Shown here one piece after another: positions 9,091 to 27,827 of a stretch of DNA of 64,000 nucleotides (positions are counted from its first letter, which is position 1; each line of letters opens with the position of its first letter). A program made the position numbers and the translations under genes. Origin of the DNA: a bacterium (lineage in GTDB: Bacteria; Patescibacteriota; Minisyncoccia; Moranbacterales; GWC2-37-73); contig JBAXDL010000002.1 of the NCBI GenBank assembly GCA_037140955.1, forward strand, positions 105,846-169,845, in the 5' to 3' direction. The notes below the pieces were generated by a model that did no database searches, had not been told where the DNA came from, and saw nothing but the letters and a program-made list of their open reading frames with translations.

Positions 9091-9311
9091 ATCCTCTCAC
9101 CTGGAAAGTTTGTTTTTTGATTGTTATTTGTTTTTTTCCTCGAAAAAAGGTTCACTTTTTTGTTTTCAAAATATATTCATCCAGCAGTAGAAATTGCACA
9201 CTTCTATCGAATCTTTATGGGGTTATTATATCATATCTTGAGGGAGGAGTACAGGATGGAAAAGTGGACAACTTTTTCTTTTTTTTAAGCTATTTTTTTG
9301 ACTTCTCCTGC

Positions 9312-9340
9312 TTGCAAAATAGTGCTTATTTTCCTATACT
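9312..9340 (+). promoter_or_regulatory. sigma-70-like promoter (TTGCAA-N17-TATACT) for rel
   Basis: -35 TTGCAA at 9312-9317, 17-nt spacer, -10 TATACT at 9335-9340. The transcript would include the palindromic repeat at 9398-9462 in its leader. Confidence 0.4.
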
Positions 9341-9397
9341 AAAAACATACAAATAACATTGAAGATGGTAGCCGTTCTTTCACCACAAGCTCATACG

Positions 9398-9462
9398 AAT
9401 ATTATTTTTTTGCGGCTTCCGTGTGAACAAAGTGAACGAAAGGCAAGCAAAAAAATAATATT
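9398..9462 (+). repeat. 65-nt palindromic intergenic repeat, copy 2
   Basis: Same element as 612-676 and 12050-12113. Located in the predicted 5' leader of rel. Confidence 0.8.
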
Positions 9463-9508
9463 CATATGAAGCTCCAAAAAAAGACATAAACAAATAATTT
9501 TAACAAGC

Positions 9509-10987
9509 ATGAATGAATTAGGATTAAACGACATTCTCAAGGCGCTTCGAACCAAGCCTTCTGACCAAAGAATAAAAGTCATCACTTTGGCTTATGAATT
9601 TGCCATGGAGGCACACAAGGGGCAATTGCGTCGTTCTGGAGAAGACTATTTCCAACATCCTATTTCTGTTGCAATAATCTTGGCACAACTTGGCATGGGC
9701 GGAAAAACAATTACAGCTGGCCTTTTGCATGATGTGCCCGAGGACACCAGTGCAACACTTGCTGATGTTGAGAAAAAATTTGGCAGCGAAATTGCTGCCA
9801 TGGTTGATGGTGTGACCAAATTGGGAAAAATAAAACTGCGCGGCTCACATGAAGAATATTTTTTGGAAAATTTGCGCAAGATGATTCTTGCTATGGCTTC
9901 TGACATTCGAGTTGTCATCATCAAACTTGCTGATCGTTTGCACAACATGCGCACACTCGAATTCAATCCACCAGACAAACAGCAACGCATTGCCAGGGAA
10001 ACAATGAAGGTTTTTGCCTCCATTGCCAACAGACTTGGAATGGGAGAAATAAAATCACAATTGCAAGATCTGTCTTTTCAATATTTGGACCCAGAAAATT
10101 ACAAACTAACAGCACAGTTGGAAGAAACTCACTACAAAGAAAAAGAAAAATACGTCTTGCAAGCAATCAAGGAAATTGAGATTGAAATGAAAAAAGAAGG
10201 AGTTGCTATCATTGAAACAAGCGGGAGAGCCAAGAGTCTGTTCAGTCTTTTTCAAAAATTGCAAAAACATGACATGGACATCACCCAAATTTATGACTTG
10301 GCTGCAGTGCGCATCATTGTGCAAGAAGTGACTGATTGTTATGAAACACTAGGAATCGTGCATAAAAAATATCGCCCCATGATCGGGAGAATCAAGGATT
10401 ACATTTCACTTCCAAAACCAAATGGATATCAATCAATCCACACTACGGTTTTTGGGCCAGATGGAAAAATCATTGAAATTCAAATAAGAACACAAAAAAT
10501 GCATTCTGAAGCTGAATTTGGAATCGCTTCTCATTGGCTTTACAGTGAAAGCAAGAAGAAAAATTGGAAAGATTATATTTTCAAAAAGAAAAAAAGTTTG
10601 CCCGAAAAAGAAATTGAATGGGTCAAGCAACTTCGCGAATGGCAAAATGAAATCGGTAGAGACGATGAAGAATTCATGCAAAGTTTGCAAATTGATTTTT
10701 TCAAAAATCACATTTTTGCCTTCACGCCTATGGGCGACATCATTGACTTACCAGAAGAAGCAACTCCGATTGATTTTGCCTATGCAATTCACGGTGAAAT
10801 AGGAAATCATGCCACTGGCGCAAAAATAAACAACAAAATGGTGCCACTCGATCAACACATCAAAAACGGAGAAGTGGTTGAAATCCTAACCTCCAAAGAT
10901 CGCAAAACACCAAATGCTGATTGGTTGAAATTTGTGAAAACATCAGTTGCAAAATCACACATCAAAAGAGAATTAAGAAAAGAATAA
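9509..10987 (+). CDS. rel: short RelA/SpoT-homolog (p)ppGpp synthetase/hydrolase (HD + synthetase + TGS domains only)
   Basis: HD hydrolase motif (GLLHDVPEDT). Synthetase core (IHTTVFGPDGKIIEIQIRTQKMH, ASHWLY). C-terminal TGS-like segment. At 492 aa it lacks the usual C-terminal ACT/RRM regulatory half. Confidence 0.85.
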   Translation: MNELGLNDILKALRTKPSDQRIKVITLAYEFAMEAHKGQLRRSGEDYFQHPISVAIILAQLGMGGKTITAGLLHDVPEDTSATLADVEKKFGSEIAAMVDGVTKLGKIKLRGSHEEYFLENLRKMILAMASDIRVVIIKLADRLHNMRTLEFNPPDKQQRIARETMKVFASIANRLGMGEIKSQLQDLSFQYLDPENYKLTAQLEETHYKEKEKYVLQAIKEIEIEMKKEGVAIIETSGRAKSLFSLFQKLQKHDMDITQIYDLAAVRIIVQEVTDCYETLGIVHKKYRPMIGRIKDYISLPKPNGYQSIHTTVFGPDGKIIEIQIRTQKMHSEAEFGIASHWLYSESKKKNWKDYIFKKKKSLPEKEIEWVKQLREWQNEIGRDDEEFMQSLQIDFFKNHIFAFTPMGDIIDLPEEATPIDFAYAIHGEIGNHATGAKINNKMVPLDQHIKNGEVVEILTSKDRKTPNADWLKFVKTSVAKSHIKRELRKE

Positions 10988-13187: not shown

Positions 13188-13228
13188 AAAAGAAAAAGGG
13201 CGCAGTCAATTTTTTGACTGCGCCCTTA
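13188..13228. terminator. bidirectional terminator (serves the minus-strand gamma-CA gene)
   Basis: 13-bp stem AGGGCGCAGTCAA/TTGACTGCGCCCT with a TTTTT loop, flanked by an A-run and a T-run, immediately 3' of the 13242 gene end. Confidence 0.55.
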
Positions 13229-13241
13229 ATGAAATAACAAC

Positions 13242-13847
13242 TCAAATTGTTTCGTGATGCTTACGCCTCTCTTGGTATATCTTAACCAAATGCTTGTTCT
13301 TGTCCACAACTGTTTTGTTGAACCCTTTTTGTTGTTCATTAACCATAGGTAAGCTGTCGGCAATGGATTGACAATCAACTACCATACCTGATCGCACAAA
13401 ACGATTAGAGTCAACTATAACGTTTTCAACAATCGCACCATGTCCAATATAGCAATTTCTGCCAACAATCGAATTATGCACAATCGCATGAAAACCAACA
13501 AATGTCTTTTTACCAATGGCTGTTGGACCATGAATAGTTGCTCGATGAGCAATTGTACAATGAGATCCAATCAACACGGAATACTTGTGACCATGTTCGT
13601 CTTCGACATATTCATTGTGTAGTCCGTGAATAATCACAGAATCCTGAATGTTGGTACCCTTGCAAATCTTAAATGGCGAACCCTCATCAGCCCTAATTGA
13701 AACATGTGGACAGACTATCACGTGATCCTCCAATTCAACCTTGCCGGTTATTCGAGCCGAACGACTAATGTAGCAATTTTCATCGTTATAGCTTGGATTA
13801 CCGAAAAACTCATCATCGTAAAATACTACTCCCTTTTTTGATTGCAT
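13242..13847 (-). CDS. gamma-class carbonic anhydrase (Cam-type left-handed beta-helix) with intact catalytic residues
   Basis: Hexapeptide-repeat protein whose core aligns with M. thermophila Cam. SIRADEG matches Cam R59/D61/E62. NIQDS matches N73/Q75. The three Zn ligands H81 (IIHGLH) and H117/H122 (IAHRATIHGP) are present. SD GGGAGG lies 8 nt upstream. Confidence 0.8.
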   Translation of the reverse strand: MQSKKGVVFYDDEFFGNPSYNDENCYISRSARITGKVELEDHVIVCPHVSIRADEGSPFKICKGTNIQDSVIIHGLHNEYVEDEHGHKYSVLIGSHCTIAHRATIHGPTAIGKKTFVGFHAIVHNSIVGRNCYIGHGAIVENVIVDSNRFVRSGMVVDCQSIADSLPMVNEQQKGFNKTVVDKNKHLVKIYQERRKHHETI

Positions 13848-14092: not shown

Positions 14093-15688
14093 CTATAAGT
14101 CAGTTCCCGAATATGAAAGATTTAAGCTTTTGTTGATCAGTGGAAAGTCAGGCACGATGTTTCCTGGTCCCATGATTCCAAACAAAGCCCAATTGCAAAA
14201 TGATGGATCACGCGGAAAGCATCTTTCAATCACACAATTTTTAATTTCCAAAGCACAAAGAACTTCACCTCTCCATGACTCAACTGCGCCAAGAGCAAAA
14301 CCATCTTTGATCTGGAAAGTTGATTTCGTTTCACCCTCTGGAATGTTTTTGACAATTTTTTCAATCAATTCCATTGTTGCATCAAGTTCATTGATGCGCA
14401 TGAGATATCTGGCATGCACATCACCTTTCTGCGCACTAGCAACAACAACTGGAAATTTTTCGTAGCAAGCATAGGCATGATCTCTTCTGGTGTCACGATC
14501 AAGGCCTGAGGCGCGAGCTGCTATTCCAAGTGCGCCCAATGCCTTTGCCGCATCAAGTGGAAGCACACCGGTTGTTTGCAAGCGATCAAGAAAACCATCT
14601 GACTCTAAAGCCAATGTCACTATTTTTTTCATTTCAATCCAAGCCTCATTTCCAATTGTAAAAAGTTTTTCTAACTTCTCAGGTGATAAATCAAATTCAA
14701 CTCCGCCGGGAATTATATATCCCCTCCAAAAACGATTGCCAAAAACTTCATCAGAAACACGCATTAATCTTTCCTTGATGCGAAAACCATTGGCAGCAAT
14801 GAAACTATATCCAGTTCCCATTCCTCCAATGTTGGCCAAGTCATGAATATGCATGGTCAACCTTTCAAGTTCGCAAACAAGCATGCGTAGCATTTGAGCC
14901 CTCTGCGAAACAACTGTTCCAGCAATTTTTTCAGCCGCTTGAACATATGCTAGAGCGTGAGCTGCTGCCATGTCGCCAGAAAGTCTTTCCACAAACGGAA
15001 GAGCATTTTCCACGATCTTCCCTTCAAGTAATTTTTCAACGCCCTTGTGGGTGAAAAATAATTTTCCTTCCAAGGTTAAGATTCTTTCGCCAGCAACATT
15101 GAAACGAAAATGCCCTGGTTCAATTATTCCAGCATGAATAGGGCCCACTGGAATCTCATAGATTCCCTCTCCAGAGACATGATGCATTGGATATTCCACA
15201 TTGGCTTTTTCCATTTTCTTGTTCCAGGCAAAATCTTTTCTGAGTGGAAACTGACCAACTGGCACATTTTCATGTGAAACCAAGCGACGCGGATCAGGAT
15301 GTCCCTCGGCAATGATGCCAAACATATCTTGCATATAGCGCTCATACCAATGTGCGGCCATTATTGTAGCTGTTAGTGCTGGATATTTTGGATTATTTTC
15401 TGGCAAAGCAGCAGAAAGATTCAGCCACTCGCCTGTTTTATCATTTCCAAAAATAACATGCACGCCAAAAGATTCATTTTCTTTTCGATCATCACTGCCG
15501 TACAAAAGCGACAAAAACAAACCATGAGCCTCAACAAGAACAGTTGAAATTCTTGCAAAATCACTGCTTTCAACAGTTGCCACGGTTGTGTCATTTTTAA
15601 TTTCAACAACTTTTATTTCCGGAAAAATTTTAATTATTTCTGATATTTTCATTTGATTATTTTGAGATATAAATAATATTTCTAGCAA
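14093..15688 (-). CDS. NuoC-NuoD fusion-like / group-4 [NiFe]-hydrogenase large-subunit-like protein lacking all Ni-Fe cysteine ligands (Ehr-type large subunit)
   Basis: N-terminal 30 kDa (NuoC/HycE N-term) region. The conserved GPIHAGIIEPGHFRF block. ERLSGDMAAAHALAY sits where hydrogenases have RxCGxCxxxHALA, so both Cys are replaced. The C-terminal DPSFCN does not match DPCxxC. The likely true start is the ATG at 15652 (MKISEII), 4 nt after the upstream stop. Confidence 0.75.
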   Translation of the reverse strand: MLEILFISQNNQMKISEIIKIFPEIKVVEIKNDTTVATVESSDFARISTVLVEAHGLFLSLLYGSDDRKENESFGVHVIFGNDKTGEWLNLSAALPENNPKYPALTATIMAAHWYERYMQDMFGIIAEGHPDPRRLVSHENVPVGQFPLRKDFAWNKKMEKANVEYPMHHVSGEGIYEIPVGPIHAGIIEPGHFRFNVAGERILTLEGKLFFTHKGVEKLLEGKIVENALPFVERLSGDMAAAHALAYVQAAEKIAGTVVSQRAQMLRMLVCELERLTMHIHDLANIGGMGTGYSFIAANGFRIKERLMRVSDEVFGNRFWRGYIIPGGVEFDLSPEKLEKLFTIGNEAWIEMKKIVTLALESDGFLDRLQTTGVLPLDAAKALGALGIAARASGLDRDTRRDHAYACYEKFPVVVASAQKGDVHARYLMRINELDATMELIEKIVKNIPEGETKSTFQIKDGFALGAVESWRGEVLCALEIKNCVIERCFPRDPSFCNWALFGIMGPGNIVPDFPLINKSLNLSYSGTDL

Positions 15689-17132
15689 TCAAATCAATAA
15701 ATTTGACTCCATTTGGAGATGACAAAAAGAAAGTCAAGCAAATGATAATAACCAATTCCAAGGTCATCACTGAATGCGTAATATTCCATTTTTCCCTCTT
15801 TTGGTTTTGCTCATTTTCATTTCCACCAAAAAACATTCCAATGGTTGATCTCAGCATGGCAAAAGAAATCACACTGAGTGCTATCATGATCAAAATAGAA
15901 AGAAATGGATGCAGCAAGAAAGCATTAGCAAAAATCATATATTCACTAACAAACAAAACTGAAGGCGGCAAAGCGATGATAGACAAAATTCCCAGCAAGA
16001 ATAATATTGCAGTAAACGGAGCTCTCTTCAACAATCCTTGAACTTTGGATGTTTGCGTTGTCTGATAGTTTGTCAGAATCTCGCCAGCTCCAAAAAACAA
16101 CATTGATTTTGAAAAAGTGTGTCCAATCATATGCACCACAGCAGCAATAGCACCCACTGGAGAAAGAGCAAGTGCAAAAGTTATAATCCCCATATGCTCA
16201 ACACTAGAATAGGCTAGCATACGCTTGTAGTTGCTCTGCACCAACATCATGAAAGCAGGAATGACAATTGAAATAAAACCAAAAAACAAAAACAAGTGTC
16301 CAGTCCACTCATTGCTGCCAAGAGAAAGATCAGTAATGAACCTGAAACGAATAATTCCATATAGCGCAATGTTCAAAAGAATACCAGAGAAAAGTCCAGA
16401 AATTGGAGATGGTGCATTACTGTGCGCATCAGGAAGCCAAATGTGCATTGGAACCAAACCAAGTTTTGCACCAAAGCCAACAAAAATGAAAACAAAAGCC
16501 CATCTGATGATGTCGATTGAAATCAAATGTGCATTTTGAGCAAGTGCTGTCAGGGTGAAAATGTCACCACCAGTGACACCACCAATTGAGGCGCCATAAC
16601 CAAACAACAAAATTCCCAACAAACCAAGACTGATGCCTGTTGAACAAATAATAATATATTTCCAAGCAGCTTCAGCTGAAGTCTTCTTGCGATACAATCC
16701 AACCAAAAATGTTGATGACAAGGTTGTGCCTTCGAGTGCCATCCAGAGCAAGAGCGAATTGTTTGCAATCACAGTAAGCAGCATACACAAAGCAAAAACA
16801 TGAAACAAAGAAAAATACAATTTCAAGTCTCCAATTGAAATTATTTTTTCCTCATGTTCATGTCCAATATACCTGACACTGACAACAGCAGCACTGATAT
16901 ATAAAAAGGCCACCAATGAAACCATCAGAGCTGAAAAATTGTCCATCAGCCAAACAGAATTTGACCAAGAGCTGCTCATTTGAAAAAGCACAGGGAGCGA
17001 CATGGAAAAAACTGAAAGTCCGCCAACAATAGCAAGGATTGTGGTGCTCAAAAGAATCTGCTTTTTTTTGTTTGAAAAAATTGCAACAGCGGCGGCAGCA
17101 AGAACAGTGATGATTGTGATGATTGGTGTCAT
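15657..17132 (-). CDS. NuoM/NuoN/HyfF/MrpD-family antiporter-like membrane subunit
   Basis: Polytopic membrane protein with the family signature PMHIWLPDAHSNAPSPISGL. Confidence 0.75.
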   Translation of the reverse strand: MTPIITIITVLAAAAVAIFSNKKKQILLSTTILAIVGGLSVFSMSLPVLFQMSSSWSNSVWLMDNFSALMVSLVAFLYISAAVVSVRYIGHEHEEKIISIGDLKLYFSLFHVFALCMLLTVIANNSLLLWMALEGTTLSSTFLVGLYRKKTSAEAAWKYIIICSTGISLGLLGILLFGYGASIGGVTGGDIFTLTALAQNAHLISIDIIRWAFVFIFVGFGAKLGLVPMHIWLPDAHSNAPSPISGLFSGILLNIALYGIIRFRFITDLSLGSNEWTGHLFLFFGFISIVIPAFMMLVQSNYKRMLAYSSVEHMGIITFALALSPVGAIAAVVHMIGHTFSKSMLFFGAGEILTNYQTTQTSKVQGLLKRAPFTAILFLLGILSIIALPPSVLFVSEYMIFANAFLLHPFLSILIMIALSVISFAMLRSTIGMFFGGNENEQNQKREKWNITHSVMTLELVIIICLTFFLSSPNGVKFIDLIARNIIYISK

Positions 17133-17156
17133 AATATTTAAATATTTAAGTTGGTA

Positions 17157-18755
17157 TTATTCAGTTAAATTACGCAAATCCTCAGTGTCAGAGCTTCCAT
17201 AAAATTCTCTAATTCTTGAACCTAAAATGGACAAAATAAACGCACTAGCAACAATAATAACAAAAACTCCAAGTTCAATCAGCAGTGGCAATGACTTGAC
17301 CGTCACCAAAGTGAAAACAGTCAGACCATTTTCCATGATTAGCAATCCAAGGATTTGTGAGAAGATGTTGCGATGCACAATCATCGTTGCAAGTCCAAGT
17401 CCAATCAAAGCAATTGAGGCATATAGCAAAGTGTCAAATTCTACCATACCAAGAATTGGAGTATGCTTCATAATATAGAAAGTTGCACCCAAAATTAGCA
17501 CCACCACGAAATAACTAGTTGCTGGCCTCAAAAATGATGGTGAGCTGATCAATTCCTTATGTTTTCTTTGTGCATATTTGATCACTATTGGCACAAGGAT
17601 TGTCTTGATCAAAATTGTTACCAAGGCAAACAACCACAAATGCTTCATTTCACTTTTTTCCACCACAAAAGAAAGTCCAAAGGCAATACCAGCAATGCAG
17701 AATGAAGAAAATGCATAGTATCGAAGCATGACTTGAGCCCTAGCTCTACCAAAAATTAAAATCACAAAAAACACTGAAAGTGCAGCAAAAATGGTGTGAT
17801 ATTGAATGTCAACTTTCACAAAAGATGCAAAGAGCGCAATCAGCATGCCAAACATGGCAGTGAAAAATGCAATCGACATAAACTCTTGCATGCGATAAAA
17901 TCTCATCTTCACTACTGTTGATTCAAGTAGTGCGAGCAATCCCATACAAACCAAAACCTTTGCAATTGCAAAGAAAATCGCAAGCACAAGTGCACCAATT
18001 CCAAAACTACTTGCAGCAATAACGGTTCCAGGAAAAATAAAATTAGAAAGCAAAATTGCAAAAATAGTCATTTTCAGAGCACTGGCATATTCCAACATTG
18101 CCAAATATGGACCAGAATATTCCAAGATCATGGCTTCATGCACCATCGTCAGCTCAAGATGTGTTGCTGGGTTATCCACTGGATATCTAGCATTTTCTGC
18201 CAATGTCACTAAGAAAAAAGCAAACACCGAAAGCAGTAGATATGGATGAGCGAAAACAAGTGGTTGCCCAACAAGTCCATCAATGGCAAATGTTCCACCA
18301 ACGAAACTCATAGCAGCAAAAACCATGATGATTATTGGTTCAACCAAAGCAGCGATCGTCATTTCGCGACTAGAACCCATCCCACCAAAAGCACTGCCTG
18401 GATCAAGACCACCAAGCACCAAGAAAATAGAGCCTATCATCAAAATTCCAGCCACAACCAAAAAATCACTAGCACTTGCCAACTTCCCTCCAACAAACAT
18501 CAATGGCAAAATAAAAGCCAAGGAAAGTGTTGTTGAAAGAACCACATATGGAACAGCGCGGAAAACCCAAGAAGCACTGCTCGAAATCACCATTTGCTTC
18601 TTGAGCAAAGTCGCAAAAGTGTAATATGGCAAAAAAGGAGAAGCGCCCTGCCGCCCTTGCAAACGCGCTTTGCAAAATCGCACCAAGCCGCTGGCAAAAG
18701 GTGCTATCAATAACACGAAAATTCCTTGTAATAATGTTGCTAGAATTGGATTCAT
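17157..18755 (-). CDS. NuoH/HycD-like membrane subunit fused to a C-terminal NuoK/HyfE/MrpC-like segment
   Basis: N-terminal KARLQGRQG...LLKK matches the NuoH/HycD R-x-Q-x-R-x-GP motif. The C-terminal part has a NuoK-like TM helix with a buried Glu (ILGLLIMENGLTVF). At 532 aa it is much longer than NuoH alone. Confidence 0.65.
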   Translation of the reverse strand: MNPILATLLQGIFVLLIAPFASGLVRFCKARLQGRQGASPFLPYYTFATLLKKQMVISSSASWVFRAVPYVVLSTTLSLAFILPLMFVGGKLASASDFLVVAGILMIGSIFLVLGGLDPGSAFGGMGSSREMTIAALVEPIIIMVFAAMSFVGGTFAIDGLVGQPLVFAHPYLLLSVFAFFLVTLAENARYPVDNPATHLELTMVHEAMILEYSGPYLAMLEYASALKMTIFAILLSNFIFPGTVIAASSFGIGALVLAIFFAIAKVLVCMGLLALLESTVVKMRFYRMQEFMSIAFFTAMFGMLIALFASFVKVDIQYHTIFAALSVFFVILIFGRARAQVMLRYYAFSSFCIAGIAFGLSFVVEKSEMKHLWLFALVTILIKTILVPIVIKYAQRKHKELISSPSFLRPATSYFVVVLILGATFYIMKHTPILGMVEFDTLLYASIALIGLGLATMIVHRNIFSQILGLLIMENGLTVFTLVTVKSLPLLIELGVFVIIVASAFILSILGSRIREFYGSSDTEDLRNLTE

Positions 18756-18811
18756 AAGGCTTATAATTTATGCGCTTAATTTCTTACAGATAAAAATAAA
18801 AGTGAGTGGAG

Positions 18812-18906
18812 CTATTTCACTCTTTGGCCAATAGCCGGCGACAGCGGCTTCTTGAGCTTTTGGATATTGAGCATTTCATCCAAAAGCGTGCCAAAGAGTG
18901 AAATAG
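18812..18906. repeat. nested inverted repeat (17-bp outer arms CTATTTCACTCTTTGGC/GCCAAAGAGTGAAATAG, 10-bp inner stem GCTTTTGGAT/ATCCAAAAGC) in the intercistronic gap
   Basis: Perfect complementarity seen directly. GC-richer than the surroundings. Lies inside the presumptive operon transcript between the NuoL-like and NuoH-like genes. Confidence 0.6.
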
Positions 18907-18946
18907 TGAAACGAACAATTCATTATTGCTAAAGCAAAAAAACAGT

Positions 18947-20950
18947 CTATAAAACAACAAGCAATGTCACTATCAATGTTCCGAGCACAAACAATAGATA
19001 ATATTGAATGCGACCACCTTGAATCATTTTCATCCTTTCGGCAACAAAATTCAATATACCAGCAATTGGTTCATAGATCTTATCCTTCCAAATAGAACTA
19101 AATGACAAAGTTAACACATATTTTCGAACCCAGGGATTTGTCTCAACAACTGGTATTGATGACAAAACCTTGTCACGACCTAGCAATTGCAAAAAGAAAA
19201 AACGAATTGGTCCAGAAAAAGCAGTTCCAGAATATTGCATGGTTGCGTCTATCGCTTGACCACAATCCCAAGTCTTATAAATTCTTTGATCATCTTTTTT
19301 AACAACAAATTTATACAAAGCATAAACGCCAAGCAAAAATACAGCTGGCAATAAAAATACCAAAACAGAAGAAAGGTTGCTATTTACTAGCGAAGATGAA
19401 ACTGAAGGAGCAGTCGCAAAAAGTTCGCTGCGCACGCTGAGCCATTTGATTATTGTTTTGGCAAAAATTCCCAAAACAATCACACCCAATCCAAGTGTCA
19501 TAATTGGCGCACTCAACATGTAGTCTGTTTTCTCAGCTCTTCTTTCAACATGCTTTGACTTTGAAAGACCAAGCATTGAGATACCAAAAATTTTGATCAT
19601 AGCAAACACAGCCAACCCACTAACCAATCCGATCGTTGCAATGCTCAGCACAAGCACGATCATGGTTGTTGAATCCAAAAGAGAATTATGTAAAACATTG
19701 ATCACATTTTGAACCAATCCCCATTCCCCATAAAATGTTCCAAATGGAGGAAGTGGCAATGAAGACAGAATTACAAGCAAAAATGCAAAAGAAAAAATTG
19801 GCATGATGTTGGCCAAACCTCCCATGACCTCAATTCTTTTGGAATGAAAACGATTGATCAGCACACCACTGCTCAAGAACAAGCCAGTCTTGAACAAGGC
19901 ATGATTGATGGCATGAAAAATCGCAAACACCACAAAAGCATTTGAAATCAAGACAACACTGTCCGCGCGACTTTGACTCAAAATATAAATCGCGATTCCA
20001 AGAATAGTAAAAATGATTCCCATGTTTTCAATACTACTATAGGCAAAAGCTCTTTTCACATCTCTTTCAATGACAGCATACAAAACACCCACCACCGCTG
20101 AAAGCAAACCAAGAATGATCACAACCAATCCCGCCCAAGCTGGCAAATTTGTCAAAGAAAAAACTATTTTAATAAAACCAAACACCGCAACTTTTAGCAT
20201 CAGTCCGCTCATCAAAGCTGAAATGTTGCTTGGTGCTTGAGGATGAGCCTCCGGAAGCCAAACATGAAATGGCACAAGTCCAGCCTTTGAACCAAAGCCA
20301 AACAAAAACAACACAAAAACCAAGCCACTTAGCATTGGAGAAAGATTTGAACTAGCCACCGCAATGCCAGAAAAATCAGAAAATATTGACCCCCAACCAA
20401 GAATCAGAAAACCACCCAAGATTGCACTTGCGCCAAGATGGGTCATAATGAAATACAAAAAAGCAGCCCGAATTGATTCTGGCGACTTGTCGATCATAAC
20501 CAAGAAAAAAGAAGCAATCGACATCACCTCCCAAAAAAACAAAAATCCAAAAGCATTATTTGAAAACAAAACTCCTTGCATACCAAGCACAAAAAAAGCG
20601 GTCAGAAATTGCACAACGGAAGGATTGTATGATTCTTCATACAATTCCAAATATCTGGTTGCATAGACACCAACCAAACAGGAAACACCAGCAATAAGCG
20701 TGAAAAATATTCCAGACAAGAGATTGATCGAAGGAGCAAAATTGAAAAGCCAACTCCAAGAACCAAGCAAAATGCTTTTTGTGGAAAAATTAAACAAATA
20801 TAGCATTCCAAAAATAAAACCAACCAAATTTGTGAGCACAAAAAGTTGAGCTGATTTTCTCCATTGACCACCAATAATAGCCAAGCCACCAGCAAAAATA
20901 AGACCCAAGAAATAAATAAAAATACCGTATGCAATAAAATCTATGGTCAT
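18947..20950 (-). CDS. NuoL/HyfB/MrpA-family antiporter-like membrane subunit (667 aa)
   Basis: Polytopic membrane protein. PFHVWLPEAHPQAPSNISALMSG signature. Size matches HyfB/NuoL. Confidence 0.75.
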   Translation of the reverse strand: MTIDFIAYGIFIYFLGLIFAGGLAIIGGQWRKSAQLFVLTNLVGFIFGMLYLFNFSTKSILLGSWSWLFNFAPSINLLSGIFFTLIAGVSCLVGVYATRYLELYEESYNPSVVQFLTAFFVLGMQGVLFSNNAFGFLFFWEVMSIASFFLVMIDKSPESIRAAFLYFIMTHLGASAILGGFLILGWGSIFSDFSGIAVASSNLSPMLSGLVFVLFLFGFGSKAGLVPFHVWLPEAHPQAPSNISALMSGLMLKVAVFGFIKIVFSLTNLPAWAGLVVIILGLLSAVVGVLYAVIERDVKRAFAYSSIENMGIIFTILGIAIYILSQSRADSVVLISNAFVVFAIFHAINHALFKTGLFLSSGVLINRFHSKRIEVMGGLANIMPIFSFAFLLVILSSLPLPPFGTFYGEWGLVQNVINVLHNSLLDSTTMIVLVLSIATIGLVSGLAVFAMIKIFGISMLGLSKSKHVERRAEKTDYMLSAPIMTLGLGVIVLGIFAKTIIKWLSVRSELFATAPSVSSSLVNSNLSSVLVFLLPAVFLLGVYALYKFVVKKDDQRIYKTWDCGQAIDATMQYSGTAFSGPIRFFFLQLLGRDKVLSSIPVVETNPWVRKYVLTLSFSSIWKDKIYEPIAGILNFVAERMKMIQGGRIQYYLLFVLGTLIVTLLVVL

Positions 20951-20959
20951 AGGATTATA

Positions 20960-21499
20960 TTAAGAATTTTTCTGATTAATAGCATTTAAAACACCTTTTA
21001 ATATTGCAGTTGGAGAAGGTGGATCGCCAGCAATGCAAATATCAACAGGAATGACTTTGTCCAAACCACCAACCACAGCATAGGAATCCTTCCAAATGCC
21101 GCCATCAATAGCACCATCGCCAAGAGCGACCACGATACAGGGACTTGGAGCGGCTTCATAGGTTGTTTTCACGGCGTTTTCCAGGTTTCTGGTTATTGGT
21201 CCTGACACAAACAGCATGTCAGCATGCCTCGGAGACGCCACAAAAGAAAGACCAAAACGGTCAATGTCATAATATGCGTTGTTCAGAGCTGTAAATTCAA
21301 TTTCTTCTCCGTTAGTAGATCCTCCATCCACAGCCCGGATGCGCAAAGATCTGCCTCCATAGAGCCTTTTTATGTTTTCTTTAAGTTCTTTGCCAACAGC
21401 TTCAAATTCAGCATCAGTGGCATCAGGGCGTAAAGTTTTTTCATCAATTGTAACCTTTGGACCAAATAATAAGACCTTGAGTAATTGGAAAAATTTCAT
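20960..21499 (-). CDS. NuoB/HycG-like small subunit lacking all four [4Fe-4S] cysteine ligands (Ehr-type small subunit)
   Basis: Aligns with NuoB (DRFGLSFVASPRHADMLFVSGPIT; VIPVDICIAGDPPSP). CCxxE is replaced by GG/ST. GSCAxxGG is replaced by GDGAIDGG. GCPP is replaced by GDPP. Confidence 0.75.
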   Translation of the reverse strand: MKFFQLLKVLLFGPKVTIDEKTLRPDATDAEFEAVGKELKENIKRLYGGRSLRIRAVDGGSTNGEEIEFTALNNAYYDIDRFGLSFVASPRHADMLFVSGPITRNLENAVKTTYEAAPSPCIVVALGDGAIDGGIWKDSYAVVGGLDKVIPVDICIAGDPPSPTAILKGVLNAINQKNS

Positions 21500-21577: not shown

Positions 21578-22018
21578 CTAATCGATCGTCACACCATGTC
21601 TGCTGTGGTGCTTTTTGGCAACACGAATACGCGCTGTTTCTTTTTCAATTGCAGCGGCAACTTTTGCATATTCCAGCTCATTCATTGAGATTTTTTGCTT
21701 GCTAATTTCTTGAGCGCGGTCCCTTGCCTGCTGGGCACGCTTCACATCAATTTCAACTGCAGCTTCAGCTGTGTCAGCAAGTACAACCAAAACATTGTCA
21801 TTAAACTCAATAAAACCACCAGAAACGACCAATAATTTTTCCTTGCCACCAACTTTAAACATAATCTCACCAGCCTTGAGGCCAGCAATATATGAACAAT
21901 GATCGGGCATGATGGTCACTTCCCCATCAGCAACAGGCAAAGTTATTTGCTCTACCTCCTTTTCAAGCACGGTGCGTTCAGGAGTAACAATCTTAAAATT
22001 AATTTTACTTGTAGACAT
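21578..22018 (-). CDS. atpC: F1 ATP synthase epsilon subunit
   Basis: MSTSKINFKIVTPERTVLEKEV... is a typical epsilon N-terminal beta-sandwich plus C-terminal helices. The ATG is at 22018. The upstream ORF-track extension is unsupported. Confidence 0.85.
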   Translation of the reverse strand: MSTSKINFKIVTPERTVLEKEVEQITLPVADGEVTIMPDHCSYIAGLKAGEIMFKVGGKEKLLVVSGGFIEFNDNVLVVLADTAEAAVEIDVKRAQQARDRAQEISKQKISMNELEYAKVAAAIEKETARIRVAKKHHSRHGVTID

Positions 22019-22184
22019 AATATTAATTTCAAATCCAAATATCAAAATCTCAATTTCAAATAAATGACTCAAATCCAAATATCAAAATTTAGATTTTAAA
22101 ATTTTGGATTTTATTTGAAATTTTGATTTTAGATTTTAGATTTAAAAACAAATTTAAACAATAAATACTTTTAGGAATGTTAAT

Positions 22185-23567
<1,383 letters not shown>

Positions 23568-23608
23568 TTAATTAGAATAATTATACCTATTTAAAAGATT
23601 CTTATAAT

Positions 23609-23722
23609 TTCGAATTTCCAATTTCTAATTTTGAATCAATACTTAATTTCCAAATTTCTAATGTTTCAAACATTCACTCATTCGGACTTGATTCAAAATT
23701 CAAAATTCGAAATTCAAAATTG
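23609..23722. repeat. AT-rich atp-spacer repeat family, copy 1 (TCGAATTTCCAATTTCTAATTTTGAATCAAT...AATTTCTAATG...TTCAAAATTCGAAATTCAAAATT)
   Basis: Shares long near-identical stretches with 27838-27976 and 29971-30084. Confidence 0.6.
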
Positions 23723-23786
23723 TCTTCAAACTTCCCATCTGTCTACACCTTTCTTGAACCATAAACAGAATCAGAACTTCAAACTA

Positions 23787-23815
23787 TTGACAAAATGATG
23801 ATTTAGGTGTATTAT
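23787..23815 (+). promoter_or_regulatory. near-consensus sigma-70 promoter TTGACA-N17-TATTAT
   Basis: -35 at 23787-23792, -10 at 23810-23815. Drives the small plus-strand ORF at 23875. Confidence 0.5.
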
Positions 23816-23874
23816 ATATGGTTGATGATTCATTGAATCATTACAACAAAATTCTAACACAAAAGGAGTTAGAC

Positions 23875-24045
23875 ATGGAAAAGTTGAAAATTTTTGAAGG
23901 AAAGATCTCCAACCTAGAAACAGATGTCAACACCTGGTTATCTGAAAATCCAGATATCAAGATAATTGAAAGGAAATTTTCCACAGAAGTTGATCAGTCA
24001 TTCACAAGCAGGTTTGTATATGTAGCAATATTTTATACAAACTAA
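23875..24045 (+). CDS. small hypothetical protein (56 aa), antisense-oriented inside the atp operon
   Basis: ATG at 23875 preceded by AAGGAG at 6-nt spacing. The ORF-track start at 23818 overlaps the promoter -10 and is less likely. No recognisable family. Confidence 0.5.
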   Translation: MEKLKIFEGKISNLETDVNTWLSENPDIKIIERKFSTEVDQSFTSRFVYVAIFYTN

Positions 24046-24061
24046 TCAAAGAGTTATCCAG

Positions 24062-24102
24062 CCACCCTTTCGCAAGATTCTTTGCGATGGGTGGTTTTTT
24101 TT
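24062..24102 (+). terminator. intrinsic terminator
   Basis: Stem CCACCC..TTTCGCAA / TTGCGA..GGGTGG followed by T8. Confidence 0.6.
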
Positions 24103-24133
24103 ATGCGCCTATTTTTTCAAAGATACTATCAGA

Positions 24134-24173
24134 GTTCAATCCTGGATTCCTGATCAAGTCAGGAATGACAAGG
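24134..24173 (+). repeat. hairpin repeat family copy A (GTTCAATCCTGGATTCC-[CTGATCAAGTCAG]-GGAATGACAAGG)
   Basis: Conserved flanks shared with 27387-27425 and, in reverse complement, 27305-27340. The inner stem differs but stays self-complementary. Confidence 0.7.
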
Positions 24174-24195
24174 TTTTGAATTCTGAATTATATTT

Positions 24196-24224
24196 TTGAC
24201 TTTATTATTGTTCACTGATATATT
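24196..24224 (+). promoter_or_regulatory. sigma-70-like promoter TTGACT-N17-TATATT
   Basis: -35 at 24196-24201, -10 at 24219-24224. About 155-nt leader before the ORF at 24386. Confidence 0.45.
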
Positions 24225-24385
24225 TCATTTACGATTTTAAATTCGATAAGGAGGTTTTTTGTTTGAAACATTTTTGTTCTTTTTTTTGAAACACTGTCCA
24301 CCATTTTGCAACCTCATCACAATCGATTGAATTTGTATGACATTGTTCATGCAAAATAAAATCAAAAGACAAAGGAGAAACAAAA

Positions 24386-24559
24386 ATGAGAAAACTGTTT
24401 TTTGCAATCATTGCCATCATCATTTCAATCACCCCAGCCATTGCACATGAAATTGGCATGCAGCACGACCATCATGACAATTGGGAAACAGTCTCTGTTT
24501 TTGCCATTATTGCCTTGATAATTCTCGGCAGAGTAATTTACAAAAAAATGGAAAAATAA
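24386..24559 (+). CDS. small His-rich membrane/secreted protein (57 aa), not in the ORF track
   Basis: ATG at 24386 with AAGGAG 8 nt upstream. Sequence MRKLFFAIIAIIISITPAIA-HEIGMQHDHHDNWE-TVSVFAIIALIILGRVIYKKMEK (signal/TM, His-rich stretch, C-terminal TM). Followed by a strong terminator. Confidence 0.5.
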   Translation: MRKLFFAIIAIIISITPAIAHEIGMQHDHHDNWETVSVFAIIALIILGRVIYKKMEK

Positions 24560-24586
24560 AATACAATTCCAAACATCTCTACTATT

Positions 24587-24622
24587 GCGCCCACACAAAT
24601 CATTGTGTTGGGCGCGTTTTTT
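24587..24622 (+). terminator. intrinsic terminator
   Basis: GC-rich stem GCGCCCACACAA/TTGTGTTGGGCGC followed by GTTTTTT. Confidence 0.65.
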
Positions 24623-24659
24623 AATTTTCAAAAGTACTTATTTTCTACGAATTACAAAT

Positions 24660-25619
24660 TTATTCCAATGCTGCTCGTCCTGCAGAAATCTCAGCAATTT
24701 CCTGGGTAATCTTTCCTTGTCTGATCTGATTGTATGCCAAGGTCAAATCGTCGCTCATTTCTTTTGCCGCATCAGTTGCATTTCTCATGGCCATCATGCG
24801 AGCTGATTGCTCAGATGCTTGCGATTCAAGCACGCCATGGAAAAGCTGCATCTCAATCAAACGTGGAATAATAAATTCCAAAACCTCACTTGCACTTGGC
24901 TCAATCTTGTATTCAACTACTGGCTCCTCTAATCCATATTCTTTGGCAATAACATCCATTTCAGCAATTTGTTTTTCAATATCAATCTTGGAAATTGGCA
25001 ACACTTGGCGAATGCGAGTTTGCTGATTTACTGCTGAAATATAATCAGTATAAATCATCACAACTTTGTCATATTTTTTTGCCAAATAATCATCCATCAC
25101 AATTTTCGAAAGAGGTTTGATGTCGACAACTGTTGCAAACTTTCCACCATCTGGAAAAGCAGCAATAATTTCTTTTTGCATTTTCCTGACAATATTTCCA
25201 CCCTTTTTTCCAACCACAATAAAATCAACTTTCAAGTCTTCATTCTTAATCTTAGACTCAATTTTCTTTTTTCCAATTCTGTTTATTTTCAATTTTTCAG
25301 GATGCAAGATTTCTTCCTTTATTTTCTTGGCAACTTGCGTATTGAATGATCCACAAAGACCACGATTGGAAGTTATTGCAATCATCAAAACACTTTTCAC
25401 TTCACGCACCTCCAAAAATCCATAATTTTCTGATGACTCAAATGCCCTAGCAAGATTGGTTAGCACACTCCAAGCAGCATGAGCATAGGCCCTAATCCCA
25501 AGCACGCTTGCAACAGCTCTGCGCATTTTGGCAGCAGAAACCATCTCCATTGCTTTGGTGATTTTTCTTGTGCTATTTATCGACCGAATGCGTCGTTTTA
25601 TATCTAGTGAACTGGCCAT
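24660..25619 (-). CDS. atpG: F1 ATP synthase gamma subunit
   Basis: Full-length gamma similarity (MASSLDIKRRIRSINSTRKITKAMEMVSAAKMRRA...). Confidence 0.9.
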   Translation of the reverse strand: MASSLDIKRRIRSINSTRKITKAMEMVSAAKMRRAVASVLGIRAYAHAAWSVLTNLARAFESSENYGFLEVREVKSVLMIAITSNRGLCGSFNTQVAKKIKEEILHPEKLKINRIGKKKIESKIKNEDLKVDFIVVGKKGGNIVRKMQKEIIAAFPDGGKFATVVDIKPLSKIVMDDYLAKKYDKVVMIYTDYISAVNQQTRIRQVLPISKIDIEKQIAEMDVIAKEYGLEEPVVEYKIEPSASEVLEFIIPRLIEMQLFHGVLESQASEQSARMMAMRNATDAAKEMSDDLTLAYNQIRQGKITQEIAEISAGRAALE

Positions 25620-25656
25620 AGTATTTAATATTTTCTGAATTTATCCAGATTCCAAT

Positions 25657-25691
25657 TTTAAATTTTAAGTTTTAAATTTTAAATTAATTTT
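25657..25691. repeat. 36-nt AT-rich spacer repeat (TTTTAAATTTTAAGTTTTAAATTTTAAATTAATTTT), copy 1
   Basis: Exact repeat of 28485-28520. Both lie in atp intercistronic spacers. Confidence 0.7.
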
Positions 25692-25748
25692 CAAATATTT
25701 AAATATTTTTTATATTCTATTTAAAATTTTTAATTTAAAATTCTGCGT

Positions 25749-27257
25749 TTACGCGGTCTGATATATTTCTTTAAATTCCTTTATTGCCTTTTCCAATGCT
25801 GCCACAACCTCATCTGACAATTCTTTCTTTTCACCAATAAGTGTGATCAAATCTTTTGCATTTGAATCTAGATATTTGTGAAAATCAGCTTCCCAACTTC
25901 TGATGTTTTCAACTTCCACATCATCAACAAAACCATTGGTAAGAGCATACAAAATTGCAACTTGATGCTCAACAATCATTGGCTCATATTGCCCTTGCTT
26001 CAAAATCTCAACTGACCTTCTTCCTCTTTCGATTTGATTTCTGGTTTTTTCATCAAGATCAGATCCAAATTGCGCAAAAGCTTCCAATTCGCGAAATTGT
26101 GCCAATTCAAGTCTCATTTTTCCAGCCACTTTTTTCATGGCCTTGATTTGAGCAGATCCACCCACACGAGAAACAGAGAGACCAACATTCACAGCAGGAC
26201 GAATACCCTTGTAAAACAAATCTGATTCCAAGAAAATTTGACCATCAGTAATAGAAATAACATTGGTTGGGATGTAAGCTGAAACATCACCCGCCTGTGT
26301 TTCAATAATTGGAAGTGCTGTCATTGAGCCGCCCCCAAAATCAGCGTTTAATTTTGCACTTCTTTCCAAAAGACGAGAATGCAAATAAAAAACATCTCCA
26401 GGATATGCTTCGCGTCCTGGTGGTCGCTTCAAGATCAAGGAAATTTGACGATATGCCCAAGCGTGACGAGAAAGATCATCAAAAACAATTAGCACATCCT
26501 CTCCCTTGTCCATGAAATATTCTCCCAGCGCGCAACCTGAATATGGAGAAATATAGGAAAGAGCTGAAGATTCTGAAGCACCTGCAACCACAATGGTGGT
26601 ATATTCCATGGCTCCACGCTTTTCAAGCTCACCCAAAATTCTGGCAATCTTTGATTCTTTTTGTCCAATTGCAACATAAATGCATTTCATGTTTTGGCCT
26701 TTTTGATTGATGATAGTGTCAATTGCAATCGCTGTTTTTCCAGTTTGACGATCACCAATAATAAGCTCGCGTTGTCCTCGTCCAATTGGAATCATCGCAT
26801 CAATTGCTTTTATGCCAGTTTGCACAGGCTGATGAACTGACTTACGAGTAATCACGCCCGGTGCAATTTTTTCCACTGGATAAAATTTGTCAGCCACAAT
26901 ATCACCCTTTCCATCAACTGGAATTCCCAAAGGGTTGATCACGCGTCCAATCATAGCATCAGAAACTGGAATAGAGAGAACATTGCCGGTTGCCTTCACA
27001 ACATCTCCTTCTTTGATTCCAATATAATTTCCAAGCACAATGACACCAACTCGATCCTCTTCAAGATTAAGTGCTACACCGATTTCTCCATTAGGAAATT
27101 CAACCATTTCTGATGCCATCAAATCTGAAAGTCCTGAAACGCGAGCAACTCCATCGCCAATTTCAATAACGCTGCCAACCTTTTCAGTAGTGGTTTCGGT
27201 TCTGAATCCTTCAATCTGCTTTTTGAGTTGTTCTATTATGTAGTCCTTGTTAGCCAT
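25749..27257 (-). CDS. atpA: F1 ATP synthase alpha subunit
   Basis: Walker A GDRQTGKT. Full-length alpha similarity. Confidence 0.95.
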
Positions 27258-27304
27258 ATTATTGATTCTACTAATTACAAATTATTACAAATTTACAAAT
27301 GTTT

Positions 27305-27340
27305 CGTGTCATTCCGGGCTCGACCCGGAATCCAGGATTA
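27305..27340 (-). repeat. hairpin repeat family copy C (reverse orientation; inner stem GGGCTCGACCC)
   Basis: Reverse complement reads AATCCTGGATTCC-GGGTCGAGCCC-GGAATGACACG. Forms an inverted pair with copy B 36 nt away. Confidence 0.7.
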
Positions 27341-27386
27341 GCACATCTCACCTTTTATTAAAAAAATCTTTATTTTATAGCCTAAG

Positions 27387-27425
27387 TTCAAATCCTGGAT
27401 TCCCGCCTCCGCGGGAATGACAAGG
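27387..27425 (+). repeat. hairpin repeat family copy B (inner stem CGCCTCCGCG)
   Basis: GTTCAAATCCTGGATTCC-CGCCTCCGCG-GGAATGACAAGG. Abuts the atpH stop codon at 27426. Confidence 0.7.
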
Positions 27426-27827
27426 TTATTTTTCTAAAACTTTTTTTAATTTCCTGAGCTGCCCTGCCACACTTCCATCGATCACTTCGTCGCCTACTCT
27501 TATTATTATTCCGCCATGAATTCTTTCATTTATGATACTTGTAATTTTAACTTTTTCAGCCTTATACTTTAATTTGATAAAATTTTCAATTTCTTTGTAT
27601 TTTGCATCTTGTATTTTGTATTTTGTGACTACTTCAGCCAAAACAATTCCATGTGCTGCATTATATAGTTCTGCAAATTTTTCCATAACCCTCTCTGCAT
27701 TCTTGAGTTGCCCATCATTTTTGAGCTGCTCGGCGAATTTCTTCACAATCACCAAAACTTCCTGCTCAGATTTTCCATCTGTCAGATCAAAAAGTGTTTG
27801 AGAATATTGTTTGATACTAACTTTCAT
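27426..27827 (-). CDS. atpH: F1 ATP synthase delta subunit (short form)
   Basis: Position between atpF and atpA. C-terminal IDGSVAGQLRKL is typical of delta/OSCP. Confidence 0.75.
   Translation of the reverse strand: MKVSIKQYSQTLFDLTDGKSEQEVLVIVKKFAEQLKNDGQLKNAERVMEKFAELYNAAHGIVLAEVVTKYKIQDAKYKEIENFIKLKYKAEKVKITSIINERIHGGIIIRVGDEVIDGSVAGQLRKLKKVLEK

Follow-up and report, generated by a model that had tools for sequence, protein, structure and literature searches.

A complex-I/hydrogenase-like membrane module with remodelled cofactor sites and its carbonic anhydrase neighbours in Patescibacteria

What can a membrane complex of the complex-I/group-4-hydrogenase type do when the ligands of all its redox cofactors have been replaced? 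This question is raised by a module of five genes (14093–21499, minus strand) in the stretch of 64 kb of DNA analysed here, which we call the window. The nearest relatives of the cluster are found in metagenome-assembled genomes of Moranbacteria/Moraniibacteriota, followed by Uhrbacteria, Falkowbacteria, Peregrinibacteria and Gracilibacteria. These are lineages of the candidate phyla radiation (CPR), and therefore the host is a CPR (Patescibacteria) bacterium. A preliminary description of the same DNA had proposed an Ehr-like, non-redox machine for ion translocation, and this reading is supported by eight ligand positions without Cys, by the lack of a ferredoxin subunit and by a conserved proton path. 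We lean, with modest confidence, towards a proton- or cation-translocating complex that would work together with a carbonic anhydrase (CA) in the handling of inorganic carbon and protons, in analogy to the DAB systems.

All five genes are assigned to hydrogenase/complex-I families by Pfam and NCBIfam (E-values from 1e-20 to 1e-139), and every Pfam family that the preliminary description had named for checking (PF01058, PF00329/PF00346, PF00146, PF00420 and PF00361) is matched. The best NCBIfam models are HyfB, HyfE, HyfF and NuoB/NuoD, and the best solved homologues are the subunits HycC, HycD, HycE and HycG of the E. coli formate hydrogenlyase (FHL, 7Z0S), with Mbh subunits also among the best matches in the PDB. 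The order of transcription is small subunit, HyfB-like subunit, HyfC+HyfE fusion, HyfF-like subunit and large subunit (Table 1). Among the structural relatives of the HyfB-like subunit are subunit H of Mbh as well as MrpA and MrpD (Mrp matches 7qru and 6z16). The large subunit likely starts at M13 of the open reading frame 14093–15688, which makes it exactly the database protein P0001; current database names for such proteins are NADH-quinone oxidoreductase subunit C or Ni,Fe-hydrogenase III large subunit.

Some architectural claims of the preliminary description need revision. Instead of three antiporter-like channels there are two subunits of PF00361, the third ion path being a channel of NuoH/HyfE type. 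The fusion of NuoC and NuoD, regarded as unusual, is the normal architecture of HycE/HyfG (residues 33–530 of the large subunit align to HycE 31–548). The fusion of NuoH and NuoK is real; its second half is a full HyfE (NF008556), NuoK-like only in its C-terminal part. This fused form of ~530 amino acids (aa) is confined to the Moranbacteria-like clade, and in Uhrbacteria and others it is found as two genes of ~310–370 and ~210–225 aa.

The replacement of the cofactor ligands is seen directly in alignments to solved structures. In the small subunit, aligned to MbhJ (6CFW) and HycG (7Z0S), the four Cys ligands of the [4Fe-4S] cluster correspond to T62, E65, G129 (after the invariant D128) and D159, in agreement with the loss of all four that had been described; the protein has two Cys in total, neither of them at a ligand position. 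In the large subunit, the L1 motif of HycE, DRVCGICGFAH, reads ERLSGDMAAAH (alignment to 7z0s_E), so that the reported change of RxCGxC into RLSGDM is correct, and the extreme C-terminus DPCYSCTD reads NLSYSGTD. The four former [NiFe] Cys positions are thus S237, M240, S525 and G528. The C-terminal loss had also been recognised, only at the wrong place: the motif DPSFCN (residues 493–499) lies ~30 residues upstream and aligns to AATYANW of HycE. The position of the quinone Tyr of NuoD is G238, and this Gly is conserved across the orthologues.

A wire for electrons is missing as well. The ferredoxin motif CxxCxxCxxxC[PAGS] does not occur in any frame of the window, and a gene of NuoI/HycF/ferredoxin type is found neither in the window nor within the module across 80 related loci, as expected from the preliminary description. 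No NuoE/F/G/I/A/J genes adjoin the module in the window, where counterparts of formate dehydrogenase, HycB/HyfA, HycF/HyfH and HyfD were not found either.

Conservation was followed over 70 small and 81 large subunit orthologues from CPR and Acidobacteriota, in which the ligand columns are free of Cys throughout. The column of the first cluster Cys holds T/S/N, that of the second E in 70/70 with an invariant E next to it, that of the third G in 70/70 with an invariant D before it, and that of the fourth D in 62/70. The column of the first NiFe Cys holds S in 79 of the 81 large subunits, with the consensus R-x-S-G-D-x-x-x-x-H around L1 (D239, H244) and N-L-S-x-x-G-T-D at the C-terminus. The AlphaFold2 model of the small subunit (mean predicted confidence, pLDDT, 91) superposes on MbhJ with a TM-score of 0.88 and a root-mean-square deviation of 2.0 Å, which shows the fold to be retained in spite of the missing cluster. 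Judged from the homologues, E65, E66, D128 and D159 would be expected around the pocket that once took up the cluster. Conserved replacements together with the retained fold of the small subunit indicate that the cofactor sites were rebuilt long ago under selection and did not simply decay.

How exceptional this state is can be judged from a survey of the best 150 small-subunit representatives at 50% identity, taken from 1.8 billion proteins. About two thirds of them retain all four Cys. The pattern (T/S/N)-E-G-(D/N/S) of the module is found in ~10 representative clusters, and other patterns without Cys are DAAD, DADN, DVEA, DVDD, DVDS and DTAD (e.g., P0244, P0247, P0275, P0313, P0334 and P0382). 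As these patterns differ and the majority retains the ligands, the loss of the cluster is clade-specific and has occurred more than once; the other patterns suggest that further independent cofactor-less complexes of the complex-I/hydrogenase type may exist. The fully cofactor-free state with conserved remodelling is new in this analysis.

By its operational definition, the module belongs to the Ehr family. Matches in Pfam, NCBIfam and the PDB provide homologues of the group 4 large and small subunits, of NuoL/M/N-like subunits and of NuoH, and the large subunits lack the N- and C-terminal Ni-Fe CxxC motifs family-wide. The derived motifs RxSGD and NLSYxGxDL, shared with a homologue from Sulfuricella, are consistent with this placement. 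No function has been assigned to Ehr complexes in the roughly 20 years over which they have been catalogued, among others in CPR, Margulisbacteria, Geobacter, Nitrospira and ammonia-oxidising archaea. Jaffe et al. (2020, PMC7304191) placed CPR large subunits without Cys ligands in a monophyletic Ehr subclade that "likely cannot interact with H2"; in the hydrogenase section of that paper, Ehr is analysed by the large subunit only, without gene context.

A scan with one genome per species gave 80 loci with the identical five genes in identical order, and 7,545 relatives of the large subunit were found at E<1e-10 in a protein search. The hosts are mostly CPR, in which the module directly follows the ATP synthase operon (atpA-G-D-C and then the module) at most loci. 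Ten or eleven loci are on high-GC, megabase-sized contigs (up to 5.35 Mb) of Acidobacteriota/Vicinamibacterales (L050, L055–L058, L061, L062, L064–L067), with ~55% identity and the same T-E-DG-D and S-G-D/N-L-S..G-T-D replacements, which implies lateral transfer of the module between CPR and Acidobacteriota. Inspection of the Acidobacteriota flanks brought up neither CA nor SulP nor atp genes nor a redox partner; naive calls of open reading frames are unreliable in DNA of such high GC content.

In contrast to the cofactor sites, the residues of the ion path are retained. Both antiporter-like subunits keep the Glu of transmembrane helix 5, the Lys/His of helix 7 and the His/Lys of helix 12: the HyfB-like subunit has E141, K222, H229, K253, H350 and K354, conserved in essentially all members, and the HyfF-like subunit has E134, K223, H230, H338 and K342, with N254 at the position in helix 8. 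The Glu series of the NuoH-like part is conserved, as are E475 and E494 of the NuoK-like part (62–63 of 63 sequences), and dozens of charged residues are invariant across the family, the whole proton path included. Judged at the level of sequence, such conservation is the signature of a working ion-translocating complex and not of a decaying operon.

With an ion path and no redox chemistry, the neighbours of the module deserve attention. Co-occurrence with the atp operon and gamma-CA genes had been listed in the preliminary description as a check only, and the CA became the main lead. The flanking open reading frames of all loci were clustered, and hidden Markov models were built from recurrent clusters; the CA nature of each family rests separately on Pfam, PDB-profile or fold-search evidence. 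Fifty CPR loci have 1.5 kb or more of sequence to either side of the module, and in 36 of them a CA or CA-like gene abuts it, either 5' of the small or 3' of the large subunit. The CPR flanks add up to 724 kb and yielded 45 CA-like open reading frames, every one at a distance of 52–872 bp from an end of the module and 42 of them on its strand. At loci such as L017, L020, L039 and L051 the module and the atp operon are separated, and there the CA tracks the module.

Four CA families take this place. The first one is the Cam/CcmM-type gamma-CA of the window, with orthologues at the same position in L006, L007, L010, L080, L083–L086 and L088. The window protein keeps the three Zn-binding His and the catalytic residues Arg59, Asp61, Glu62 and Gln75 (Cam numbering; alignments to 3kwc and Cam), within the motifs iiHGL, iAHra, iHGP and siRaDEG..NiQD. 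The equivalent of Glu84 of Cam is His here and Gln in CcmM. On these residues, the gene is a predicted gamma-CA of the Cam/CcmM subclass; chains of the gamma-CA of plant complex I are among its weak matches, and no signal peptide is evident by eye in its N-terminal sequence. The second family is PF20393, "Pro_CA_2" (E=5e-13). The third one is a CsoSCA-type beta-CA of ~350 aa with an invariant C-x-D-x-R...H...C (profile matches to 8thm at 2e-14, to 2fgy at 2e-13 and to other beta-CAs), named "carboxysome shell carbonic anhydrase" at NCBI. The fourth one, c21, is a family of ~210 aa with the motifs C-x-D and H-x-P-C-G. It has no Pfam match and only four homologues in a word-indexed protein search, and its AlphaFold2 model has a moderate pLDDT of 73; beta-CAs are the only proteins among the top 18 PDB matches of that model, with low TM-scores of 0.34–0.50, so that c21 is probably beta-CA-like. 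A comparison of the accessory clusters c7, c21 and c25 with hhalign, made on shallow alignments, gave no significant relationship. Some Uhrbacteria loci have a second, downstream c21 paralogue (L036, 11120–11740; L040, 11634–12230) in which C-x-D and H-x-P-C-G are both lost, and which may be degenerate and non-catalytic.

That CA classes which are not orthologous replace one another at a fixed position speaks for a functional link, without which such swapping is hard to explain. The frequent CA adjacency suggests that Ehr complexes handle CO2/bicarbonate and protons, not electrons. A minireview of 2024 (PMC10880623) remarks that CA genes of some autotrophs lie beside "formate hydrogenlyase" genes, a "recurring juxtaposition" for which it has no explanation; these may be clusters of the same kind. 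In the searchable literature, we found neither a link between Ehr and CA nor a small subunit without cluster, and absence there is not proof.

A scan of metagenomes with the window gamma-CA as query gave further contexts. Module and gamma-CA are together in L083–L086, and in L088, in which the module is much more divergent (large subunit 39% identical), the gamma-CA lies 89 bp downstream. Locus L087 (contig Ga0172380_10000537) is a very close relative, with an atpD 98% identical, and has no module; therefore, the module is a recently gained or lost accessory trait. In L087, the place of the module, with the atp operon on one side and the same gamma-CA on the other, is taken by genes (6482–9918) for a Na+/H+ exchanger (PF00999) and a SulP transporter (PF00916+STAS). 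The SulP family includes the bicarbonate transporter BicA and is known for fusions to CAs. Searches with tblastn for SulP, NhaP, DabA and RbcL over the window and 88 loci hit the genes of L087 only.

Outside CPR, the CsoSCA-like CA family is also present in Proteobacteria. Sulfuricella sp. T08 has a comparable arrangement: a homologous module, in the order HyfB, HyfC, HyfE, HyfF, large and small subunits, has SulP on one side and a CsoSCA-like CA on the other, a few genes away from the RuBisCO operon cbbL-cbbS-cbbQ-cbbO and a LysR regulator. Its large subunit has RVSGDS and NLSYTGVDL, and its small subunit retains four Cys. In Nitrosospira sp. NpAV (L090, 11216–20698) and in a JGI metagenome contig (L092, 11060–21053), the CsoSCA-like CA adjoins DabA and four PF00361 subunits, with SulP also present in L092. 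The same CA stands among SulP and DASS transporters in two other contigs, in two contexts without anything relevant, in one context cut by the end of the contig, and alone in one copy from Paceibacterota. Hence four parallel arrangements are available for comparison: SulP, DabA with PF00361 subunits, and CA; SulP, Ehr module and CA; NhaP with SulP, and gamma-CA; and, in the window, Ehr module and gamma-CA. The CA partnership, the syntenic exchange with NhaP and SulP and the Sulfuricella parallel are new in this analysis. As a side observation, the DAB-type clusters of L090 and L092 are unusually large (DabA of ~1095 aa) compared to the two-gene DabAB operons of the DAB literature.

The lack of an electron route, the intact proton path and the repeated neighbourhood of genes for dissolved inorganic carbon point together to a non-redox proton/cation complex with a cytoplasmic CA. 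We infer ion translocation and functional links to the CA and to the ATPase as follows. The complex would be a descendant of group 4 hydrogenases of the Hyf/FHL type without redox cofactor. Its membrane arm, formed by two antiporter-like subunits and the NuoH/HyfE channel, would conduct protons or cations along the Glu/Lys/His chain, and the old [4Fe-4S] and [NiFe] pockets would have been rebuilt as a conserved polar/acidic site. Its partner would be a soluble cytoplasmic CA, in the window the downstream gamma-CA, so that movement of H+ or cations across the membrane could be coupled to CO2 + H2O <-> HCO3- + H+. The H+-type F1Fo ATPase, whose genes lie immediately upstream, might generate the gradient or draw on it, in an organism without a respiratory chain.

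Two versions of this model can be envisaged. The module itself may couple proton flow to CO2 hydration/bicarbonate conversion, the chemistry taking place at the remodelled polar site; or the module may be a cation/proton antiporter, with the carbon chemistry left to the CA and other transporters. The direction could likewise be hydration of CO2 and capture of inorganic carbon driven by the proton-motive force (PMF), or a proton-sink/pH-stat role. The first version is favoured by the equivalent position of DAB in its own clusters. The second version, or a proton-sink/pH-stat role, is favoured because the CAs are ordinary and interchangeable and a pump that does nothing but accumulate bicarbonate would be short-circuited by free CA in the cytoplasm.

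Several points weigh against a complex that works with a CA. The short circuit just mentioned is one of them, and interchangeable, presumably freely reversible CAs argue against a fixed docking interface, unlike the dedicated, gated DabA and CupA. No CA adjoins the module in 14 of the 50 well-flanked CPR loci, nor in any of the 10–11 Acidobacteriota loci. The loci are phylogenetically related, so that the independent events are far below 36, with ~8 configurations of CA family and position. Between the large subunit and the gamma-CA of the window there is a promoter-like site as well as a weak hairpin, so that the gamma-CA may be regarded only as a candidate for co-transcription with the module. 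Moreover, the window has no homologue of RuBisCO, SulP or DabA, CPR are not known as autotrophs, and the combination of module, SulP, CA and cbb genes outside CPR is a single example, Sulfuricella.

The strongest rival would make the module an Mrp-like secondary Na+(K+)/H+ antiporter for pH and ion homeostasis downstream of an H+-ATPase, with the NuoB/NuoCD remnants as a cap or regulator and the CA buffering or supplying H+/HCO3- in a "transport metabolon". We consider it unlikely, even if it draws on much of the same evidence: the HyfB-like subunit finds some of its best structural relatives in MrpA, MrpD and Mbh subunit H, a NhaP-type exchanger takes the slot of the module in L087, exchange between CA classes fits coupling at the level of substrate and not of structure, and most CPR modules come after an atp operon. 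However, Mrp needs no NuoB, NuoD or NuoH, which are here under strong purifying selection, remodelled polar site included. The exchanger of L087 came together with an anion/bicarbonate-type SulP transporter, and the Sulfuricella module sits with SulP, CA and RuBisCO genes. The motif which we take to be the Na+ signature of c subunits is absent from the ATPase c subunit of the window, which suggests an H+-coupled ATPase.

Quite unlikely, in our opinion, is that the CA adjacency is incidental or reflects a different shared regulation, while the remodelled site would couple the ion flow to another non-redox reaction or transport process. The loci without CA and the possible own promoter of the gamma-CA would agree with it, and a conserved cluster of D/E/H/S residues could bind many ligands. 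But the four CA families, on either side, are always contiguous with the module and were met nowhere else in the 724 kb of flanks; the CA remains with the module where the atp operon is apart; and the arrangements parallel those of DAB and SulP.

It is very improbable that the complex is still a redox enzyme, either hydrogenase-like or linked to formate dehydrogenase or ferredoxin, through shifted ligands, a cofactor bound without Cys or partners encoded elsewhere. Formate dehydrogenase partners have been proposed for other Ehr complexes (PMC6349859), the Sulfuricella small subunit keeps its four Cys, and C498 of the large subunit is conserved. Against this stand the ligand columns without Cys in 70–81 orthologues, the off-site location of both small-subunit Cys, the Gly at the quinone Tyr position and the absence of a NuoI/HycF-type subunit and of any ferredoxin motif in 64 kb; a small subunit without cluster leaves no wire from an external donor. 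A conventional hydrogenase with shifted ligands was rejected, since Cys are scarce and no conserved one stands where a ligand would be needed. Finally, a decaying remnant of a hydrogenase operon is hardly credible, and a pseudogene cluster was rejected: all catalytic ligands are lost and the distribution is patchy, with no module in the very close relative L087, but the five open reading frames are intact, strongly conserved and in the same order in 80+ loci of several CPR classes and Acidobacteriota, with dozens of invariant charged residues, those of the whole proton path among them, and with conserved replacement residues.

Going back to the complex that works with a CA, a wider proposal can be made, possible in our opinion and far from probable: that the Ehr family consists of machines derived from complex I that couple proton flow to the acid-base chemistry of CO2/HCO3- and not to redox chemistry, with the CPR module and the F1Fo ATPase forming a circuit of two enzymes. 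Such a recruitment of the complex-I membrane arm for inorganic carbon would be the third independent one, NDH-1MS and DAB being the earlier two. The CPR/Acidobacteriota clade has shed even its last FeS cluster, which would show that the NuoB/NuoD/NuoH coupling apparatus can run without electrons. The CPR module and the ATPase would be a minimal chemiosmotic circuit from ATP to PMF to capture of inorganic carbon; in the opposite direction, PMF and ATP synthesis would be sustained without a respiratory chain through the bicarbonate-dependent consumption of protons. Such a result would bear on complex-I-type coupling, which proton chemistry at the old quinone/NiFe site would trigger, on the management of PMF, pH and inorganic carbon without respiratory chains, and on the annotation of "hydrogenase" and "NADH dehydrogenase" genes in metagenomes. 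In this clade redox chemistry is excluded by sequence, so that the function of the complex, whatever its kind, is carried out without electrons. The cofactor-free state, the CA partnership, the exchange with NhaP/SulP and the Sulfuricella parallel, taken together, make the function of Ehr experimentally approachable.

The features of the window on which this discussion is based are collected in Table 1.

Table 1. Positions of the module and of its neighbours in the window, in order of transcription
Feature	Position	Strand	Length	Basis
F1Fo ATP synthase operon: atpB (29094–29933), atpE (28642–28863), atpF, atpH, atpA, atpG, atpD, atpC	21578–29933	-		Translations and Pfam on locus L081
Small subunit, HycG/MbhJ/NuoB-like	20960–21499	-	179 aa	PF01058 E=4e-24; alignments to 6cfw_J and 7z0s_G
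HyfB/HycC/NuoL-like antiporter-like subunit	18947–20950	-	667 aa	PF00361 E=3e-46; NF005086 HyfB 466 bits; HycC 7z0s_C E=4e-45
Fusion of HyfC/HycD/NuoH-like (~1–310) and HyfE-like (~320–532) parts	17157–18755	-		PF00146 E=3e-27; PF00420 E=1e-6; NF008556 HyfE; HycD 7z0s_D E=1e-30
HyfF/NuoM/N-like antiporter-like subunit	15657–17132	-	491 aa	PF00361 E=4e-55; HyfF models up to 357 bits
Large subunit, HycE/HyfG-type NuoC+NuoD fusion	14093–15652	-	519 aa from M13	PF00329 E=1e-20; PF00346 E=2e-37; weak PF00374; HycE 7z0s_E E=2e-68
Predicted Cam/CcmM-type gamma-CA, 245 bp downstream of large subunit	13242–13847	-	201 aa	NF053794 CcmM-N E=2e-49; NF040597 E=9e-39; 3kwc E=9e-37; Cam 1thj E=4e-31
Strong intrinsic-terminator-like hairpin, closing the gene string after the gamma-CA	13196–13227	-		14-bp stem, 8 GC, T-run

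The neighbouring genes around the module are all on the minus strand, in DNA with a G+C content of ~38%, and the independently made gene calls of the public contig match this layout. The atp operon ends 78 bp upstream of the small-subunit gene, and the terminator is followed by a tRNA-Leu on the opposite strand, parA and parB. The spacer between atpG and atpD is ~1.1 kb long (23559–24659) and has small open reading frames only, e.g., 24229–24459 (minus) and 23818–24045 (plus); its length is variable among relatives, and it is absent in L011. A conserved gene for a membrane-anchored DUF4349 protein of ~330 aa follows the CA in the Moranbacteria-like clade (module, CA, DUF4349, parAB; L001–L014, L016, L022 and L024). 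It is kept in L087 (10637–11680), where the module is missing, and no such gene lies between the gamma-CA and parA in the window. Elsewhere in the window, 23S and 5S rRNA genes (40165–43445) without an adjacent 16S gene point to an unlinked rRNA arrangement, and the 23S match of 3067 nt against a model of 2925 positions probably carries insertions. Three giant predicted surface proteins are encoded at 889–9090, 53384–58387 and 58552–63981; that of 2733 aa has fn3 and purple-acid-phosphatase-N-like domains, and those of 1667 and 1809 aa have 15–17 FG-GAP repeats each.

It remains to compare the module with the known systems. With the Ehr complexes (PMC7304191; PMC7894505) it shares NuoL-like, NuoH-like, HyfE-like, NuoM/N-like, large and small subunits and a large subunit without NiFe CxxC motifs. 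It differs from them in that its small subunit is also without [4Fe-4S] cluster, with a conserved T-E-(D)G-D instead, and in that HyfC and HyfE are fused, the genes follow the atp operon and CAs are paired with it; neither the atp/CA context nor the loss of the small-subunit cluster is mentioned in the sections consulted of the two papers. Hyf/FHL-2 and FHL-1 (group 4a, 7Z0S) provide the best solved homologue of every module subunit and have the same NuoC-NuoD-type fusion in HycE, whereas the module has neither the NiFe site nor the FeS cluster. Of the marks of group 4 [NiFe]-hydrogenases, namely four NiFe Cys, a proximal [4Fe-4S] cluster and a ferredoxin-like subunit with 2x[4Fe-4S], none is present. 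The same holds for the marks of respiratory complex I: the quinone Tyr of NuoD, the N2 ligands in NuoB and the NuoEFG/NuoI chain.

The Mrp (Mnh/Sha) antiporters are likewise non-redox and combine the antiporter-like subunits MrpA and MrpD with a NuoK-like subunit, and they differ by having no homologues of NuoH, NuoB and NuoCD. MrpB, MrpE, MrpF and MrpG are not among the Pfam matches of the five module proteins, which thus do not make up the seven-subunit Mrp set. A membrane arm of complex-I type with a CO2-hydrating or gamma-CA module is present in the cyanobacterial NDH-1MS/MS' (CupA/CupB) and in the mitochondrial complex I of plants and protists. These, however, retain their full set of FeS clusters and are redox-driven, with electrons passing to quinone from ferredoxin or NADH, and the CupA of NDH-1MS is unrelated to the CAs found here.

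The DAB/MpsAB systems offer a functional parallel, as does the CupA arm of the cyanobacterial NDH-1MS. No DabA (PF10070) was found by tblastn with the Nitrosospira protein in the window or in 88 loci. Instead of DabA, ordinary gamma- or beta-CAs of interchangeable class are the partners here, and homologues of NuoH, NuoB and NuoCD, absent in DAB, are kept. What both have in common is a proton-conducting PF00361 subunit next to a CA-type protein in a non-redox, PMF-coupled system (PMC13144422; 10.1101/476713; PMC6689103), and cryo-electron microscopy has presented DAB2 as a PMF-driven vectorial CA on a NuoL-like subunit (PMC13144422). Moreover, the same family of CsoSCA-like CA and SulP flank both the DAB clusters and the Ehr-type module of Sulfuricella.

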